Virus record (IMG/VR): IMGVR_UViG_2645727821_000016
From: a virus
Lineage: Duplodnaviria > Heunggongvirae > Uroviricota > Caudoviricetes
DNA: 22,822 nucleotides
Reading direction: 5' to 3' (one strand)
Of the stretch, positions 472-18,020 are shown one piece after another. Position numbers and translations under genes: made by a program. Below the pieces are notes generated by a model. It was not told the DNA's origin. It saw only the letters and a list, made by a program, of their open reading frames with translations, and ran no database searches. The first letter of the stretch is position 1, and every line of letters begins with the position of its first letter.

Positions 472-630
472 AATGACGCCCTCTGGTGGTTTCTAAATAA
501 CCCACCACCGACGATGCCAATCATCTGGTGGTGAACTGTGCAGGGTTGGCATAACCGGGAAACCGACCGGCGCGGATCTCTCCGCCCCCACACAGCCCAC
601 CATAATTCAGATGTGCGCGTGCATACGACA

Positions 631-654
631 ATAAAAAACACGCTCGCGGCGTGT
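631..654 (-). terminator. Putative rho-independent terminator downstream of int (minus strand)
   Basis: Inverted repeat acacgc/gcgtgt (638-643 and 649-654) with a 5-nt loop; the adjacent A-run on the plus strand gives a U-tract after the stem on the minus-strand transcript. It lies about 90 bp past the int stop. Confidence 0.45.
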
Positions 655-741
655 ATCTGTCGCGGTTTCTATCCGGGATGCCAATCCCGACGCCAGATTT
701 TGCTGGCGTGCGCAGACTATAATCCCGGACGGTTATTTTTG

Positions 742-5100: not shown

Positions 5101-5665
5101 TATCGCGTCCTCAACAATGAATTTTGTGATGCGGTGCCTGGTGCTTCCAGGTGACGTTAACCAGTTAACAATTAACGCCGGATACAGAGAATCCACCCAT
5201 AACACTGTTTTTGGTTTTAACTGTTCCGCGTGCGCTTAGCCGCATTCACCGCATCACAAAATTCACTTTAAAAAGGGCGGCAGAGCAGTCACGGAGTAAA
5301 ACTGATACCGCCAAACGTCACCAGAAAATTGATAACAGAGGGCGTTGCAGCGGGGTTGTCACTTAAGCGTATGGTCAACCTGACAACCCGGTGTCCTCAA
5401 CGGTGGAAGGAATAACCCCGCCATACTTACCGCCGCGCCATTTCGCGGATTGCCACAACCGGAAGCGCACGGTCGACGAAAATTTAACGACAGGCTATCT
5501 ATGAACCAGCTACCTCGCCGTGCGCTTTCGCGTTATGGTCTGACTTTTCAGGGAAATATCCTTTCAGTAAACTGTCAGTGCCGGATGCTCACCCGTGTCC
5601 GGCGCACGCACTCCACCTCACCCGTGGAGAACTCCTTAATTACCAACCTTAGCTTCGTTGGTTAG

Positions 5666-9481: not shown

Positions 9482-9607
9482 CGAGATTAAAGTGCATTAG
9501 TTCAGATGCAAATTGACATTTTGTGGCACAGGGTAGAGCTAGCGTGGTTGTCCGCTTTGTGCCAATAGCGGACATTGCTGGCTCATGGTATGTTAGTTTA
9601 AGGAGGC

Positions 9608-9639
9608 AGGTTATGCTCTGTATTTCGCTGTGGTATAAT
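9608..9639 (+). promoter_or_regulatory. Candidate promoter with extended -10 (TGgTATAAT) for the AT-rich cassette
   Basis: tggtataat at 9631-9639 is a perfect TATAAT with an upstream TG; a weak -35-like TTATGC lies 17 bp upstream. If the ATG at 9613 is the true start, this element would be intragenic. Confidence 0.35.
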
Positions 9640-10635
9640 AGTTGCGCAATTGATACAAGGGAGCGTTACATCGTGAAAATTGTTTTCGAGGTTAATGGAA
9701 AGAAAGTTCCACTAAAATCTTTAAAATACATAAGCAAAAAAGATCAACTCGAAGTAATGAAAAACTGGTTCTTTGAAAACTTTGAAGATCCGGCAAATGC
9801 TTGTCCGTATGAAAGTAGAGAAGGTGGCTATGCTTACATATATGGCGGGCCGTATGATGCGAGCGAAGAACTACAATCCATCTTCGGTCAATATGTTAAA
9901 TCTGAGTATATTGAGGAATTAGTAGATGAATTACAAACACAATGTTTTGACTGGTCTGGAAACTCAAATAATATAGATGATTGGTACGATGATGATATCT
10001 ACGACGCTGTAACGTCTTCCGGTAATCCGTATTTAAAATTCATTGATAATATCGATAAAATAAAAAAACTTGCAAAAGATAAAACTGAACAACAGCAAAA
10101 AAACCACTTGCTTAGTTTGCTCTACACGAATGTTATTACAGCTTTGGAAACGCTTTATGTTGAGCTATTCATTAATTCTATAGAGAAAGATGATGTCTAC
10201 ATAGCCAATTGTATAGAAAAAGGTAAGACTGAATTTAAAGTAAGCAAAGATATTGCTGCGTTGCCTTTCAAGGGTGAACCCATCGAGAAAATTAGGGGAG
10301 AGCTAATCAGGTCAATCAAGGAACACTTGATCAGTGCAAGCTGGCATAGCACTAAAAAGGTAATCGACCGCTATGAAGCTACATTCGATATAAAAGTACA
10401 AAAAGACTGTCCGATAGAAGCTATTGAATTGGCAACCCTCAATCGAAATCACTTAGTGCATCGTGGTGGAAAGGATAAAGAAGGGAACCTCGTAGTGATT
10501 ACAGACCAGGATCTTGAAACGCTGATTGAAAATGCATCGAACCTGGCAATTATGCTCTACAACAGTTTAAATGTAGCAACGAATAAAACCACCATTTTGC
10601 AACCAGATGACAAACCGTTCATTCATGAATTTTAA
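9613..10635 (+). CDS. AT-rich cassette gene A: hypothetical protein with no assignable function (candidate defence/abortive-infection component)
   Basis: Long ORF with strongly AT-biased codon usage, unlike its neighbours. Start is ambiguous: ATG 9613 with AGGAGG 6 nt upstream, or GTG 9673 with AAGGGAG 9 nt upstream, or the track's 9523. A single R-x4-H (RNHLVH) lies near the C-terminus. Confidence 0.7.
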   Translation: MLCISLWYNSCAIDTRERYIVKIVFEVNGKKVPLKSLKYISKKDQLEVMKNWFFENFEDPANACPYESREGGYAYIYGGPYDASEELQSIFGQYVKSEYIEELVDELQTQCFDWSGNSNNIDDWYDDDIYDAVTSSGNPYLKFIDNIDKIKKLAKDKTEQQQKNHLLSLLYTNVITALETLYVELFINSIEKDDVYIANCIEKGKTEFKVSKDIAALPFKGEPIEKIRGELIRSIKEHLISASWHSTKKVIDRYEATFDIKVQKDCPIEAIELATLNRNHLVHRGGKDKEGNLVVITDQDLETLIENASNLAIMLYNSLNVATNKTTILQPDDKPFIHEF

Positions 10636-10650
10636 TAGCGCAGGTCATAC

Positions 10651-11652
10651 ATGGATATTCGCACACGAAAGACAAAATTTTTAGAGTCGTTAGATTCAAC
10701 TGAAGTGATACGCAAAGCAGTAAGTCTCGCTATAGATTGCATTATTGATAATCATAATAGTAATGAAGATACCCCCTTAGTTATTACCAGCTATGATGAT
10801 CTCTGTAGAATCCAGGTGCTAAATTATGTACAGGAGTTTTGCGAAGCTGCATTCCCTGATATGGATGAATATTACTTTAGTCCTAACATACTTCGCATCA
10901 ACGGCAAGACTAGTGAAGAAGCTTGTATTAACTTAATTAAACTCTTAAGAAGTACAAAAGGCATGCTATTCTGGTCCGATGCCCCATCGTGGTTCGCTAG
11001 CCTCCCCGACGGATTATTCCATGTTGTTAACATTGATCAAAAAATCGTTACTCGCGGCCTTAATAAGAAAAACTCTAAGCCGACAATAATCAATAAAGAT
11101 TACAGTGTAGATACACTACTATCAGAGCTATTTTTGAATGGCGCACACATGGAGCAACCCAACGTACACAACGTTTCTGAGGGAAACATGAAGTTCTATG
11201 ATGAATGCCATGCTGGATTAATCAGACCAATACCCGCTCCAATAGGCGCGTCATACGATGAAGAGATCACAATTAATTCTCCAGATTGGCAAAAGCTCGC
11301 GTGTGTAGCTTTACGCCGCTATCAGTCGAAGGAATGTCATGACGGAATGCAATGGGATACAACCGATCATGGTTGGACTGATGTAATCGCGTATCCATTC
11401 GTCGAAGAAATACAATCAATGGATAATAGTGGTTATCGACAATGTTTAGTTGGGCTGGTCACAATAAACAATTCAAATGCAAATTCTCCGTACCTATCTA
11501 CCGTTTGGATACATCCATTTTATCGCAGGAGAGGGTTATTAAGTAAGTTATGGCCAAAATTACAAGAGTTATATGGAAGTAACTTCGAAATTGAGCGACC
11601 TAATGAAAATATGAAAGCATTTCTGAAAAGTGCGAAACACGCAGATTACTAA
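10651..11652 (+). CDS. AT-rich cassette gene B: hypothetical protein with C-terminal GNAT-like (acetyltransferase motif A-like) segment
   Basis: 333-aa ORF, 15 bp downstream of gene A, on the same strand with the same AT-rich composition. The C-terminus reads ...CLVGLVTINNSN...YLSTVWIHPFYRRRGLLSKLWPKL, resembling the GNAT beta4-alpha3 acetyl-CoA-binding loop. Confidence 0.8.
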   Translation: MDIRTRKTKFLESLDSTEVIRKAVSLAIDCIIDNHNSNEDTPLVITSYDDLCRIQVLNYVQEFCEAAFPDMDEYYFSPNILRINGKTSEEACINLIKLLRSTKGMLFWSDAPSWFASLPDGLFHVVNIDQKIVTRGLNKKNSKPTIINKDYSVDTLLSELFLNGAHMEQPNVHNVSEGNMKFYDECHAGLIRPIPAPIGASYDEEITINSPDWQKLACVALRRYQSKECHDGMQWDTTDHGWTDVIAYPFVEEIQSMDNSGYRQCLVGLVTINNSNANSPYLSTVWIHPFYRRRGLLSKLWPKLQELYGSNFEIERPNENMKAFLKSAKHADY

Positions 11653-12059
11653 TTTATGAATCAGTCTGTGGAGTTAGGGTTGGTGTCAACAAGTAGGGTA
11701 AGAGCCTCAACGTGATGCTATGCCGACCTGCTCCCTGAGAATTCACACAGAAGGCTGCTAGCAATGTCTGCAGATCGCTCAAAGCGGACTAGAAGGTTAG
11801 CTTGCGTCGGACTTGGCGTATTTAAAGAAGTGCTGGTGGTGACTGGTTGTTGTGTTCCATTTCTACAGAACAAAATCACAGAAACTATACCCAATAGTTA
11901 TATTGAATCAATGATGAGACAGCCTCATATTTATCAGAACTGGTGTACGTCCAATACAGGAGGTTGTCGTGCTGGTTCTCAAATGTGCGCTAGCTATTGC
12001 GGCTGTAATGGCAATTTATTGTCTTGCTGTTGTTCTTATGGATCGCCTTTCTGATTGAT

Positions 12060-12269
12060 TTTATATTGGCGAGGTGACGGGAGTTAAGTAGAATTGCTGC
12101 GGGTGCTTGAGGCTATCTGCCTCAGGCATGAACACCAAAGGCAGATAGAGAAAAGCCCCAGTTAATATTACGCGTCCTGCAAGACGCTTAACATTAATCT
12201 GAGGCTCAATCTATGAACGGCAAATCTAGGTTAGCCTCTTACGTGCCGAAAGGCAAGGAGAAGCAGGCT
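12060..12269 (+). promoter_or_regulatory. hok mRNA leader region (probable location of antisense Sok-type RNA and an upstream overlapping frame)
   Basis: Structured leader upstream of hok: hairpin tgagg-ctatctg-cctca and a complementary aaaggcagatagag segment. The 5' segment gaggtgacggg (12071-12081) is partly complementary to the hairpin flank ccctcgccacctc (12447-12459) downstream of hok, fbi/tac-like. An in-frame upstream start at 12213 extends the frame to 70 codons. Confidence 0.35.
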
Positions 12270-12425
12270 ATGAAGCAGCAAAAGGCGATGTTAATCGCCC
12301 TGATCGTCATCTGTTTAACCGTCATAGTGACGGCACTGGTAACGAGGAAAGACCTCTGCGAGGTACGAATCCGAACCGGCCAGACGGAGGTCGCTGTCTT
12401 CACAGTTTACGAACCTGAGGAGTAA
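12270..12425 (+). CDS. hok: Hok/Gef-family type I toxin (HokD/RelF-like), 51 aa
   Basis: ATG at 12270 with AAGGAG at 12255-12260. The product MKQQKAMLIALIVICLTVIVTALVTRKDLCEVRIRTGQTEVAVFTVYEPEE has the single transmembrane helix and conserved Cys/Glu tail of Hok-family toxins. Confidence 0.85.
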   Translation: MKQQKAMLIALIVICLTVIVTALVTRKDLCEVRIRTGQTEVAVFTVYEPEE

Positions 12426-12432
12426 GAGACCC

Positions 12433-12454
12433 GGCGAGGGAGAAATCCCTCGCC
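12433..12454 (+). other. Perfect 9-bp hairpin at the hok 3' end (fbi-like fold-back element)
   Basis: ggcgaggga-gaaa-tccctcgcc with no U-tract after it; consistent with the hok mRNA 3' fold-back element rather than a terminator. Confidence 0.4.
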
Positions 12455-12493
12455 ACCTCTGATGTGTCAGGCATCCTCAACGCACCCGCACGT

Positions 12494-12520
12494 AACCCGC
12501 TTCGGCGGGTTTTGTTTTTT
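12494..12520 (+). terminator. Rho-independent terminator downstream of hok
   Basis: aacccgc-ttcg-gcgggtt followed by ttgtttttt. Confidence 0.6.
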
Positions 12521-12592
12521 CCTGGCATTCTGGTTTACAATTCGCACGCCAGCCTGAACAACTGGCACCTGCTGCGCCAGCAGAGACAACCG

Positions 12593-16795: not shown

Positions 16796-16871
16796 GGCCC
16801 TTTAGCTCAGTGGTGAGAGCGAGCGACTCATAATCGCCAGGTCGCTGGTTCAAATCCAGCAAGGGCCACCA
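16796..16871 (+). tRNA. tRNA-Ile (anticodon CAU, ileX/ileZ-like; tRNA-Met not formally excluded)
   Basis: 76-nt cloverleaf: acceptor GGCCCTT/AAGGGCC, D-arm GCTCAGTGGTGAGAGC, anticodon loop CTCATAA, T-loop GGTTCAAATCC, 3' ACCA. Close to E. coli tRNA-Ile2 by recall. Confidence 0.85.
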
Positions 16872-16878
16872 TCACATA

Positions 16879-16955
16879 CCGCCATTAGCTCATCAGGAAA
16901 GAGCGCCAGCCTTCGAAGCTGGTTGCGCGGAGTTCGGGTCCCCGAAGGCGGTCCA
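16879..16955 (+). tRNA. tRNA-Arg (anticodon UCG), somewhat degenerate (argN-like)
   Basis: Acceptor CCGCCAT/AAGGCGG with one mismatch; anticodon stem-loop CCAGC-CTTCGAA-GCTGG; T-loop GTTCGGGTCC with one mismatch in the T-stem; ends in CCA. Confidence 0.6.
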
Positions 16956-16968
16956 TTATCTGTATCCT

Positions 16969-17045
16969 GCGTTGTTAGCTCAGCCGGACAGAGCAATTGC
17001 CTTCTAAGCAATCGGTCACTGGTTCGAATCCAGTACAACGCGCCA
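16969..17045 (+). tRNA. tRNA-Arg (anticodon UCU, argO/argU-like)
   Basis: Acceptor GCGTTGT/ACAACGC; D-arm TAGCTCAGCCGGACAGAGC; anticodon stem-loop ATTGC-CTTCTAA-GCAAT; T-arm ACTGG-TTCGAAT-CCAGT; 3' GCCA. Confidence 0.85.
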
Positions 17046-17090: not shown

Positions 17091-17306
17091 CTCACAATTC
17101 AGGCGGTTGACTGTTGTCTGGTTTGCGGGGAGTTTGTTAAAAGAAACTGGCATGGTGAATCCCCCTGTGCGGAGGGGCAATCAGCGAGTAGGTATATGGG
17201 ATAATCGCGGATTCAGGTGCTGGTACTGAATTCACCGGGAGGCACCCGGCACCATGCAATGGCACATAGCGCCACTCTCCAGCCCCTCTCCGGAGGGGCT
17301 TTTCTG
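17091..17306 (+). repeat. Structured noncoding unit, copy 1 (promoter-like TTGACT, nested hairpins, terminator): candidate small RNA or attenuator
   Basis: Blocks shared with copy 2: ctcacaattcag, ttgac, tttgttaaaa, catggtgaatccccctgNgcggaggggc, caccgggaggcacccggcaccatg, and agcccctctccggagggg followed by a T-tract (terminator hairpin at 17281-17306). Confidence 0.5.
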
Positions 17307-17493
17307 TGCCGGATACATCACAGTTTCTGGAACCTTAGGTACTACAGTATCAGTCAGGGTGCTATATTTTCAGATGTGATGAAAGCCTGTCAGCAGGCAG
17401 GGCGTATCGGAAATGACCCAGTAGAGAAAACGTTGACTCAGATACCGGTGCTGAGTTACCGGGAAACCGGCATCACATGACCGCTATCCTTCC

Positions 17494-17521
17494 AGGCCCA
17501 TCCGCTCCGGTGGGCCTTTTT
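17494..17521 (+). terminator. Rho-independent terminator between the two repeat units
   Basis: ggcccatccg-ctc-cggtgggcc followed by ttttt. Confidence 0.5.
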
Positions 17522-17558
17522 ACTGCAGAAAACAGGTTCCCCGTTAAATGCTATGTTG

Positions 17559-17792
17559 CTCACAATTCAGTAAGTTGACAGTTGCCTGTCAGACTGGGCA
17601 TTTGTTAAAAAAATTTCGCATGGTGAATCCCCCTGAGCGGAGGGGCGACTGGTGACGGTATAATCTCTGATTATCAAAACGAGAATGACGCGGGTTTAGT
17701 GGCACCGGGCTGAACTCACCGGGAGGCACCCGGCACCATGTGCATGATGATACAGATACGCGGCTTTAGCCCCTCTCCGGAGGGGTTTTCTT
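17559..17792 (+). repeat. Structured noncoding unit, copy 2 (TTGACA, TATAAT, nested hairpins, terminator)
   Basis: Same conserved blocks as copy 1 in the same order; TTGACA at 17575-17580; TATAAT at 17659-17664; terminator gcccctctccggagggg plus ttttctt at 17768-17792; another hairpin gcccgcg...cgcgggc at about 17807-17829. Confidence 0.5.
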
Positions 17793-18020
17793 GTGGGCAA
17801 AAAAAGCCCGCGCTGGGAGACGCGGGCGGCAAGGAATAAACAATAAAACGTGAAGTAATATTTCAGCTGGCGAATAATACCCCATAGTAATCACTCTGCG
17901 CAACTGCGCGGTCTTTTTCGAATTGCGGGCTGTCGTCTCTCTTCTGCCATTGTCCTGTAACTTCCGGACTTCAGCCCGCTCCTTATTTTACTCACAATAT
18001 TATCCCGGCCGGGAGGATTC

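Follow-up and report, generated by a model that had tools for sequence, protein, structure and literature searches.

The best-described relatives of the locus considered here are hok/mok/sok of plasmid R1 and hokW-sokW of prophage Sp5. In the R1 model, the full-length mRNA has tac paired with fbi and the mok SD with ucb, and the truncated mRNA has tac paired with ucb and the SD with dcb (PMC9841398). Processing of the mRNA from its 3' end, cleavage of the duplex by RNase III, and the short half-life of Sok are known for R1 and partly for hokW (PMC9841398, PMC8621323). Experiments demonstrated that hokW-sokW of Sp5 is a toxin-antitoxin system of type I in which HokW is toxic and is neutralised by sokW expressed from its own promoter, aided by RNase III and Hfq; this promoter is required for the antitoxin activity (PMC8621323). 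After mitomycin C treatment, sokW is lost in a RecA-dependent manner, and after induction HokW builds up in the inner membrane ca. 1 h before the endolysin. The deletion of hokW-sokW from Sp5 delayed growth arrest and halved phage release (PMC8621323).

The window, i.e., the whole 22,822-nt stretch of viral DNA that was analysed, very probably carries an intact hok/mok/sok type I toxin-antitoxin module at 12060-12520. The module belongs to a lambdoid E. coli prophage that resembles Rac and Qin, and its place there is the early-right region, the equivalent of 'nin'. The promoter, tac, ucb, mok, the Sok gene, dcb, hok, the 3' stem-loop, fbi, and the terminator were all located within 12066-12521 (Table 1). 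The initial annotation had read 12060-12520 as a complete, HokD/RelF-like locus for a type I toxin of the hok family; this reading was borne out, with a prophage as the carrier, and these limits bracket the whole locus well. The hok and Hok signals in the window were far above chance expectation. The copy in the window contains no IS element and no truncation, and its mok start, Sok gene, and fbi are kept. The module is a conventional one that is already known and catalogued, and a near-identical phage copy has been characterised. As a discovery, the locus carries little weight: hundreds of RefSeq genomes have this very sequence annotated as hokD, the mechanism is a textbook one, and a prophage copy that has already been characterised is 94% identical to it. 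It is of practical use for annotation, in that base-precise positions can be given to mok, Sok, tac, fbi, and the promoters, where RefSeq has the hok CDS only.

Table 1 Features of the hok/mok/sok locus in the window, in order of position.
Feature	Coordinates	Strand	Sequence or size	Basis
hok (mok-hok) promoter	12066-12094	+	-35 TTGGCG (12066-12071), 17-nt spacer, -10 TAGAAT (12089-12094)	
Putative full-length mok-hok mRNA	12101-12518	+	ca. 418 nt	5' end from homology, 3' end from the terminator
tac (translational activator element)	12101-12112	+	GGGUGCUUGAGG	Predicted MFE partner: fbi in full-length RNA, ucb in truncated RNA
Sok antisense RNA gene	12221 to 12151	-	ca. 71 nt	Transferred from annotated sokW of 933W by alignment
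ucb / anti-SD	12153-12159	+	AAGCCCC	Predicted folds; agrees with the published R1 model (PMC9841398)
mok frame	12213-12425	+	70 codons; SD GAGG (12201-12204)	ORF list; equals annotated mokW
Sok promoter	12228-12256	-	-35 TTGCCT (12256 to 12251), 17-nt spacer, -10 TAACCT (12233 to 12228)	
dcb	12233-12238	+	AGCCUC	Predicted folds of RNAs ending at 12474 or 12465; partner is the mok SD region (12201-12206)
hok toxin gene	12270-12425	+	51 aa; SD AGGAG (12256-12260)	Pfam, PHROG, RefSeq name
3' stem-loop	12433-12454	+	9 bp, GAAA loop: GGCGAGGGA-GAAA-TCCCTCGCC	Read from the sequence
fbi (fold-back inhibition element)	12475-12487	+	CCUCAACGCACCC, C12481 bulged	Pairs with tac; folds and alignment
Intrinsic terminator of hok mRNA	12494-12521	+	Stem 12494-12511, T-rich tail	Terminator scan

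Over 12081-12489, the locus shared 93.7% DNA identity with hokW/mokW/sokW of the Stx2 phage 933W and the Sakai prophage Sp5, and the alignment mapped the 933W annotation of mokW to 12213-12425, hokW to 12270-12425, and sokW to 12151-12221 on the minus strand. The -10 hexamer, tac, ucb, the Sok promoter, an in-frame 70-codon mok, and fbi are common to both loci, whereas 933W differs upstream of the -10, downstream of fbi, where its terminator is a different one, and in the first six mok codons, which are the target of the Sok 5' tail. The positions also differ: the 933W locus lies in the right-end moron region and that of the window in the early-right region. hokD (relF) of the K-12 prophage Qin occupies the same neighbourhood as the locus in the window (dicF, cargo, hokD, rem/DUF968 ydfU, and the Q-like ydfT), and its 3' hairpin, fbi, and terminator are nearly identical. 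However, K-12 hokD is homologous to the window only from 12256 onward, and its promoter, tac, ucb, mok start, and whole Sok gene have been replaced by relBE sequence from next to relE. The window holds the complete form and K-12 the truncated one, so that the former shows what K-12 hokD was like before relBE took over its 5' half.

The comparison with hok/mok/sok (parB) of plasmid R1 was made through an R1-like locus (L010). Although DNA similarity between this locus and the window was detectable over ca. 47 nt only, the order of the elements, the Sok architecture, and the match to Rfam RF01794 were alike, and so were the pairings predicted for the alternative folds, namely, tac/fbi and ucb/SD and, on the other hand, tac/ucb and SD/dcb. 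The R1-type locus is plasmid-borne, unlike that of the window, its mok is in the +1 frame and not in frame with hok, and its tac and fbi differ from those of the window by compensatory changes. The chromosomal hokC/mokC/sokC of E. coli (gef, L006), a core-chromosome locus beside dnaJ, showed 74.6% DNA identity and has an in-frame 69-codon mok and the same tac; its Sok-terminator hairpin is shorter than that of the window, and its fbi is CUUCAACGCACCC with a G:U pair.

The Hok peptide read from the ATG at 12270, MKQQKAMLIALIVICLTVIVTALVTRKDLCEVRIRTGQTEVAVFTVYEPEE, corresponds to the last 51 codons of the 70-codon frame. The Hok/Gef assignment made initially for this ORF was confirmed by the ORF list and by its match to Pfam HOK_GEF (PF01848; score 78.6 bits, cut-off 22, E 2.6e-22). 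Both the 70-codon and the 51-aa forms match HOK_GEF and PHROG 251 ('MokW-like host killing'), the latter with an E value of 2.8e-32 for Hok, and the score with the NCBIfam Hok subfamily NF007279 was 45 bits, which is under its strict cut-off of 73. With these matches, the peptide fits the description of a hok/mok/sok toxin as a Hok/Gef family member of ca. 50 aa with a single transmembrane segment. The identical CDS is named hokD in RefSeq. Hok of the window is the same as K-12 HokD/RelF in 50 of 51 residues, the sole change being A46V, and as HokW in 47 of 51. Among the toxic homologues, RelF/HokD is the classical one (Gerdes 1986, cited in PMC9841398); the peptide of the window, with its A46V change, may be toxic as well.

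The putative hok promoter matched the consensus at nine of 12 positions in the promoter scan, its -35 hexamer being a poor match. In all the aligned loci, a -10-like hexamer lies 6-7 nt before a conserved GGGYGCTTGAG, at which transcription would start, and the sequence farther upstream is lineage-specific. RF01794, the curated covariance model of the hok leader and sok region, matched 12101-12275 over its full length with 113.3 bits against a gathering score of 59. The minimum free energy (MFE) of the RNA 12101-12518 was -175.4 kcal/mol (z = -8.5 versus shuffled sequences). The terminator stem comprises seven pairs, five of them G-C, followed by TTGTTTTTTC. Three statements of the initial annotation were thereby upheld: a structured leader, as indicated by the RF01794 score; a perfect 9-bp hairpin just after the stop codon, its loop being GAAA; and a terminator, formed by the stem at 12494-12511 and the T-run behind it. 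The full-length mRNA also folds much more stably than its shuffled counterparts. By analogy with R1 (PMC9841398), the hairpin at 12433-12454 is probably the 3'-terminal protective hairpin of the processed mRNA. An isrK model also hit the 3' untranslated region (12434-12515) with 27.8 bits against a gathering score of 50; this hit was set aside as a generic likeness between hairpin-plus-terminator structures.

In the predicted fold of the full-length RNA, tac pairs with fbi, closing the two ends of the molecule, and CCCC of ucb (12156-12159) pairs with the mok SD. When the RNA was made to end at 12474 or 12465, the partner of tac was predicted to switch to ucb (12153-12159) and the mok SD region (12201-12206) to pair with dcb, which would make the Sok-target hairpin with its loop facing the Sok 5' tail. 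An RNA ending at 12470 was predicted to form a tac-proximal hairpin, as described for the metastable co-transcriptional structure. The in silico folds therefore contain both states of a conformational switch (ucb/SD in the full-length RNA; tac/ucb and SD/dcb in the truncated RNAs), and this predicted switch is the published R1 scheme, element for element. A different tac/fbi pair had been suggested initially, namely, 'gaggtgacggg' (12071-12081) with the flank of the 3' hairpin, and this was rejected in favour of 12101-12112 with 12475-12487. Since 'gaggtgacggg' lies between the -35 (12066-12071) and the -10 (12089-12094), it is upstream of the transcript, which would start at ca. 12101. It is also not conserved in 933W, and its complementarity to the flank, at 12454, is limited to the 6 nt GAGGTG/CACCTC.

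The initial annotation held that mok and Sok could not be placed confidently by eye; both were placed by homology to the annotated mokW and sokW of 933W and by structure. The mok frame starts 57 nt upstream of hok in the same frame, so that it overlaps hok and has an SD of its own, and the exact 70-aa Mok sequence occurs on at least 1,000 contigs. The predicted Sok RNA has 14 single-stranded nt as its 5' tail, followed by a long hairpin (12207 to 12153) and the U-tail UUUUCU, and it folds with -35 kcal/mol (z = -5.7); as modelled, this 71-nt RNA has the Sok architecture. Its complementarity to the mRNA covers ucb as well as the SD (GAGG, 12201-12204) and AUG of mok. From sequence, the minus strand would encode a cis antisense RNA of the size of Sok (ca. 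65-70 nt) over the SD and start of mok, with a promoter and a terminator hairpin. RF01794 could not be used as evidence for the Sok strand: its match lies on the hok-sense strand, the minus-strand match scoring only 19.9 bits, and therefore marks the leader region.

The initial annotation had also proposed a search for a minus-strand promoter at ca. 12200-12280. A scan of 12200-12280 with a consensus promoter found none on this strand; the alignment with sokW placed a putative, weak one at 12228-12256. With its hexamers, it matches the consensus at only seven of 12 positions, which explains its absence from the scan results. The -35, spacer, and -10 are identical to those of sokW of 933W, and the predicted +1 of Sok lies 6 nt past the -10 TAACCT.

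The structure was further examined in 37 non-identical loci with intact ends, which comprised Escherichia loci of the hokD, hokW, and hokC types, copies from P1-like plasmids, an R1-like Klebsiella plasmid locus, and loci from Kluyvera, Citrobacter, Pantoea, and many Photorhabdus. When the MFE structure of the window was projected on these loci, 86.9% of the cells were paired as compared to 39-46% in controls in which the 3' partners were slid by 1-3 columns; the real structure is favoured in this comparison because it was derived from one of the aligned sequences. The counts of pairs changed on both sides, which are less affected by this bias, were 37 for the real structure and 15-21 for the slid controls. 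Per-sequence duplex folding gave a tac/fbi duplex in all 37 loci, with energies of -18 to -26 kcal/mol. It also resolved an undercount of the distal half of tac/fbi in Photorhabdus, which the projection had produced through a 1-nt register shift at the bulged C of the Escherichia rows. The compensatory changes in the tac/fbi helix include U:A to C:G at pair 4:427, with 23 sequences having the former and 12 the latter, and G:C to A:U; GAGG/CCUC of the window is GAGA/UCUC in Photorhabdus and GAAG/CUUC in Citrobacter. The post-stop hairpin (helix 15) was 96.7% paired across the 37 loci, again with compensatory changes.

An ATG-started mok frame running across the hok start was found in 33 of the 37 loci and the in-frame layout of the window in 26, while mok is in the +1 frame in the P1-type loci, the R1-like locus, and two others. 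This variation fits the view that the translation of mok matters and not the Mok product (PMC9841398).

Most of the chromosomal hok loci of K-12 are inactive, and the intact sequence of the locus in the window is, therefore, not proof of its activity. It might be a silent relic of the same kind that is neither transcribed nor toxic and merely hitch-hikes with the prophage. K-12 hokD is a truncated remnant of this very locus, and the same truncated form was found in three other loci (L015, L035, and L047); four loci have no ATG-started mok frame across the hok start (L023, L024, L025, and L008), and in another (L005) IS421 lies between the 3' hairpin and fbi, so that fbi has been removed. The promoter hexamers of the window are also weak. 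However, every regulatory element is present, the compensatory changes in the RNA helices indicate purifying selection on the structure, sokW, which is functional, has an identical promoter to Sok of the window (PMC8621323), and the locus is 100% conserved in many genomes. These observations render a silent relic improbable.

The 461-nt stretch 12060-12520 is 100% identical in UTI89, S88, APEC O1, IHE3034, NU14, ATCC 11775, and many other strains. Among 5,426 complete E. coli genomes, 4,728 had matches with at least 85% identity, and in 3,926 the hok locus covered at least 80% of the query. The prophage of UTI89 that is integrated beside ompW has the same sequence as the window from ca. 6000 onward but not in the first 4.5 kb, so that the window derives from a related strain and not from UTI89 itself. 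To the left of hok, the window carries dicB/DicF, a cI-like repressor, Cro, YdaT, a DUF977 gene, and an AT-rich two-gene cassette, and to the right a DUF968 gene, RusA, Q, tRNAs, and lysis genes. The hok locus thus lies between the DUF977 gene with a variable cargo slot and the DUF968-RusA-Q genes. As the right-hand edge of this slot in Rac/Qin-like prophages, it may aid the mining of defence genes there.

The two-gene cassette (9523-11652; GC content 33-43%) is adjacent to hok, and the initial annotation had suggested that hok may cooperate with it or stabilise it. Of the 5,426 E. coli genomes, 205 had a complete match to a cassette query (9500-11700), and in 201 of these the cassette was contiguous with hok. 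In spite of this adjacency, a functional tie between the two, be it as an addiction or stabilisation partner or as one defence system, is hardly credible. The hok locus is present in ca. 3,900 genomes (3,926 by the coverage above), so that ca. 95% of the genomes with hok have no cassette. The slot also accommodates quite different cargos: relBE in K-12, a DUF4209 gene in ATCC 25922, AbiH or small hypothetical genes in other genomes, and Paa/AdfO in PPompW phages. It also exists without hok, as in Rac-like prophages whose cargo is either a transporter or a set made up of an adenosine deaminase, an NTP pyrophosphatase, and SIR2. The hok module, for its part, has its own promoter and terminator and is found at other positions, i.e., after Q, on P1-like and other plasmids, and at the right end of Stx phages. 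A survey found hok enriched in prophages and not enriched near defence systems (bioRxiv 10.1101/2025.08.07.668861). From the genome counts, the alternative cargos, the other positions of hok, and this survey, the adjacency is positional, both elements lying at a recombination-prone cargo site with nothing to point to a functional link between them. Neither PADLOC nor NCBIfam had a match for the cassette proteins, and Pfam gave only sub-threshold hits to HEPN/RES-NTD1 and GNAT.

Based on the predicted folds and the systems described above, we propose that the locus would work as follows. The weak promoter would constitutively yield a stable mok-hok mRNA of ca. 418 nt, in which tac (12101-12112) would be bound to fbi (12475-12487) and the mok SD would be held by ucb; because of these pairings, the full-length mRNA would be neither translated nor bound by Sok. 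Slow trimming from the 3' end would strip the terminator and fbi and halt at the 12433-12454 hairpin, upon which tac would re-pair with ucb and the mok SD with dcb in the target hairpin. The short-lived 71-nt Sok (12221 to 12151) would then bind to the target hairpin, and RNase III would cut the duplex. Once the supply of Sok stops, mok would be translated and hok with it by coupling, and the 51-aa Hok peptide would enter the inner membrane and kill the cell.

By analogy with Sp5, the prophage would most likely profit from the locus by killing and lysing its host faster after induction; loss-dependent killing and the exclusion of other phages are possible secondary roles. The locus of Sp5, from which the lysis role is extrapolated, sits in another part of the prophage. 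Exclusion might instead be the main role, in which case the shut-off of host transcription by an infecting lytic phage would deplete Sok and lead to abortive infection. hok/sok of R1 is reported to exclude T4, the survey mentioned above cites a defence role of hok/Sok (bioRxiv 10.1101/2025.08.07.668861), and the adjoining cargo slot often holds defence-like genes (AbiH and SIR2). However, the same survey showed no enrichment of hok near defence systems, PADLOC has no model matching hok, and the sole experiment on a prophage homologue points to lysis coupled to induction (PMC8621323). We, thus, consider exclusion as the main role unlikely, if conceivable, and favour induction-coupled lysis. The two roles are not mutually exclusive.

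The ca. 300 bp upstream of the hok promoter (11775-12073) carry no annotation, yet at least 1,356 E. coli genomes have them in conserved form. This segment contains an ORF for a 29-aa hydrophobic peptide (11969-12058) with a strong SD, for which PADLOC and NCBIfam scans returned no match. It is rather doubtful, if worth considering, that the hok module is the downstream half of a larger conserved unit that includes 11775-12073 and in which the peptide or early-right transcription couples the release of Hok to induction. Should the peptide prove to be a genuine small membrane protein or a toxin, the transcription of its gene would run into hok/sok. Since hok is co-oriented with the early-right operon, read-through from this operon at induction would likewise run into hok/sok and could meet the convergent Sok promoter. 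Transcription from either source could then silence this promoter at induction, which would provide a mechanistic explanation for the loss of sokW on induction in Sp5.

A stretch of about 300 bp without annotation (window positions 11775-12073) lies upstream of the hok promoter. Of the 5,426 E. coli genomes, 1,356 contained this segment with a coverage of at least 80%. In every case, it was located in Rac/Qin-like prophages, where it occupied the right edge of the slot for variable cargo, the stretch between the DUF977 gene and hok. In some prophages (loci L065 and L066), the segment was followed by a DUF1971 gene in place of hok, with the break at approximately 12073. The segment contains a hydrophobic 29-aa ORF, which had an uninterrupted frame of 29 codons in each of the eight variants examined. 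Ten variable sites were found in the 90 nt of this ORF, six of which were at codon position 3, as compared to 38 in the 169 nt upstream. Searches against Pfam, NCBIfam, PHROGs, and PADLOC gave no match, and the exact sequence occurred in 146 contigs, with a single annotation as 'hypothetical protein' (GCZ25347.1). The ORF may encode an unrecognised small membrane protein.

The cargo slot of the window is filled by an AT-rich cassette encoding proteins of 370 aa and 333 aa, which matched PHROGs 17908 and 16994, respectively, both of unknown function. Pfam yielded only sub-threshold matches (HEPN/RES-NTD1 and GNAT) for these proteins, and no match was obtained in a PADLOC scan. The cassette was carried by 205 E. 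coli genomes, and it is disrupted by IS1 in strain SF-173. The coordinates of the cassette, the 29-aa ORF, and the other RNA genes in the window are listed below.

Features of the window outside the hok locus
Feature	Coordinates	Strand	Remarks
C4 antisense RNA with a1/b1 targets, plus isrK	524-722	-	
DicF	5275-5326	-	
AT-rich two-gene cassette	9523-11652		GC 33-43%
29-aa hydrophobic ORF, MLVLKCALAIAAVMAIYCLAVVLMDRLSD	11969-12058	+	Start GTG; AGGAGG 5 nt upstream
Three tRNAs (Ile, Arg, Arg)	16796-17042		
STnc100, two tandem copies	17121-17798		Downstream of Q/methyltransferase region

The match to Rfam RF01794 ('sok antitoxin') at 12101-12275 was on the hok-sense strand and ended at the hok AUG; in effect, this family models the leader of hok mRNA and not the antisense RNA itself. 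The isrK covariance model matched the hok 3' UTR (12434-12515) with 27.8 bits, below its gathering score of 50. This match spans the hok hairpin, the 3'-end element fbi, and the terminator; the resemblance is probably a generic structural likeness.

The hok Tyr47 codon and the following G form UACG (12408-12411), which is the reported motif for the Tyr-to-Cys recoding of hokB, hokC, hokD, and hokE through A-to-I editing by TadA (bioRxiv 10.1101/2025.08.07.668861). TACGAA around this codon was invariant in all 37 aligned loci.

The truncated relBE-hokD arrangement of the K-12 type was also found in another E. coli strain and a Kluyvera species (L015, L035, and L047); therefore, the replacement of the 5' half of hok by relBE sequence has spread as a unit. 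Near-identical hokD sequences were also observed in very short contigs that bear the names Acinetobacter idrijaensis and Xanthomonas pisi, and one with 97% identity was present in an entry titled Actinobacillus phage vB_Apl-pPE4 (loci L027 and L032; database match H37). The occurrences under these three names are likely due to contamination with E. coli prophage DNA or mislabelling.
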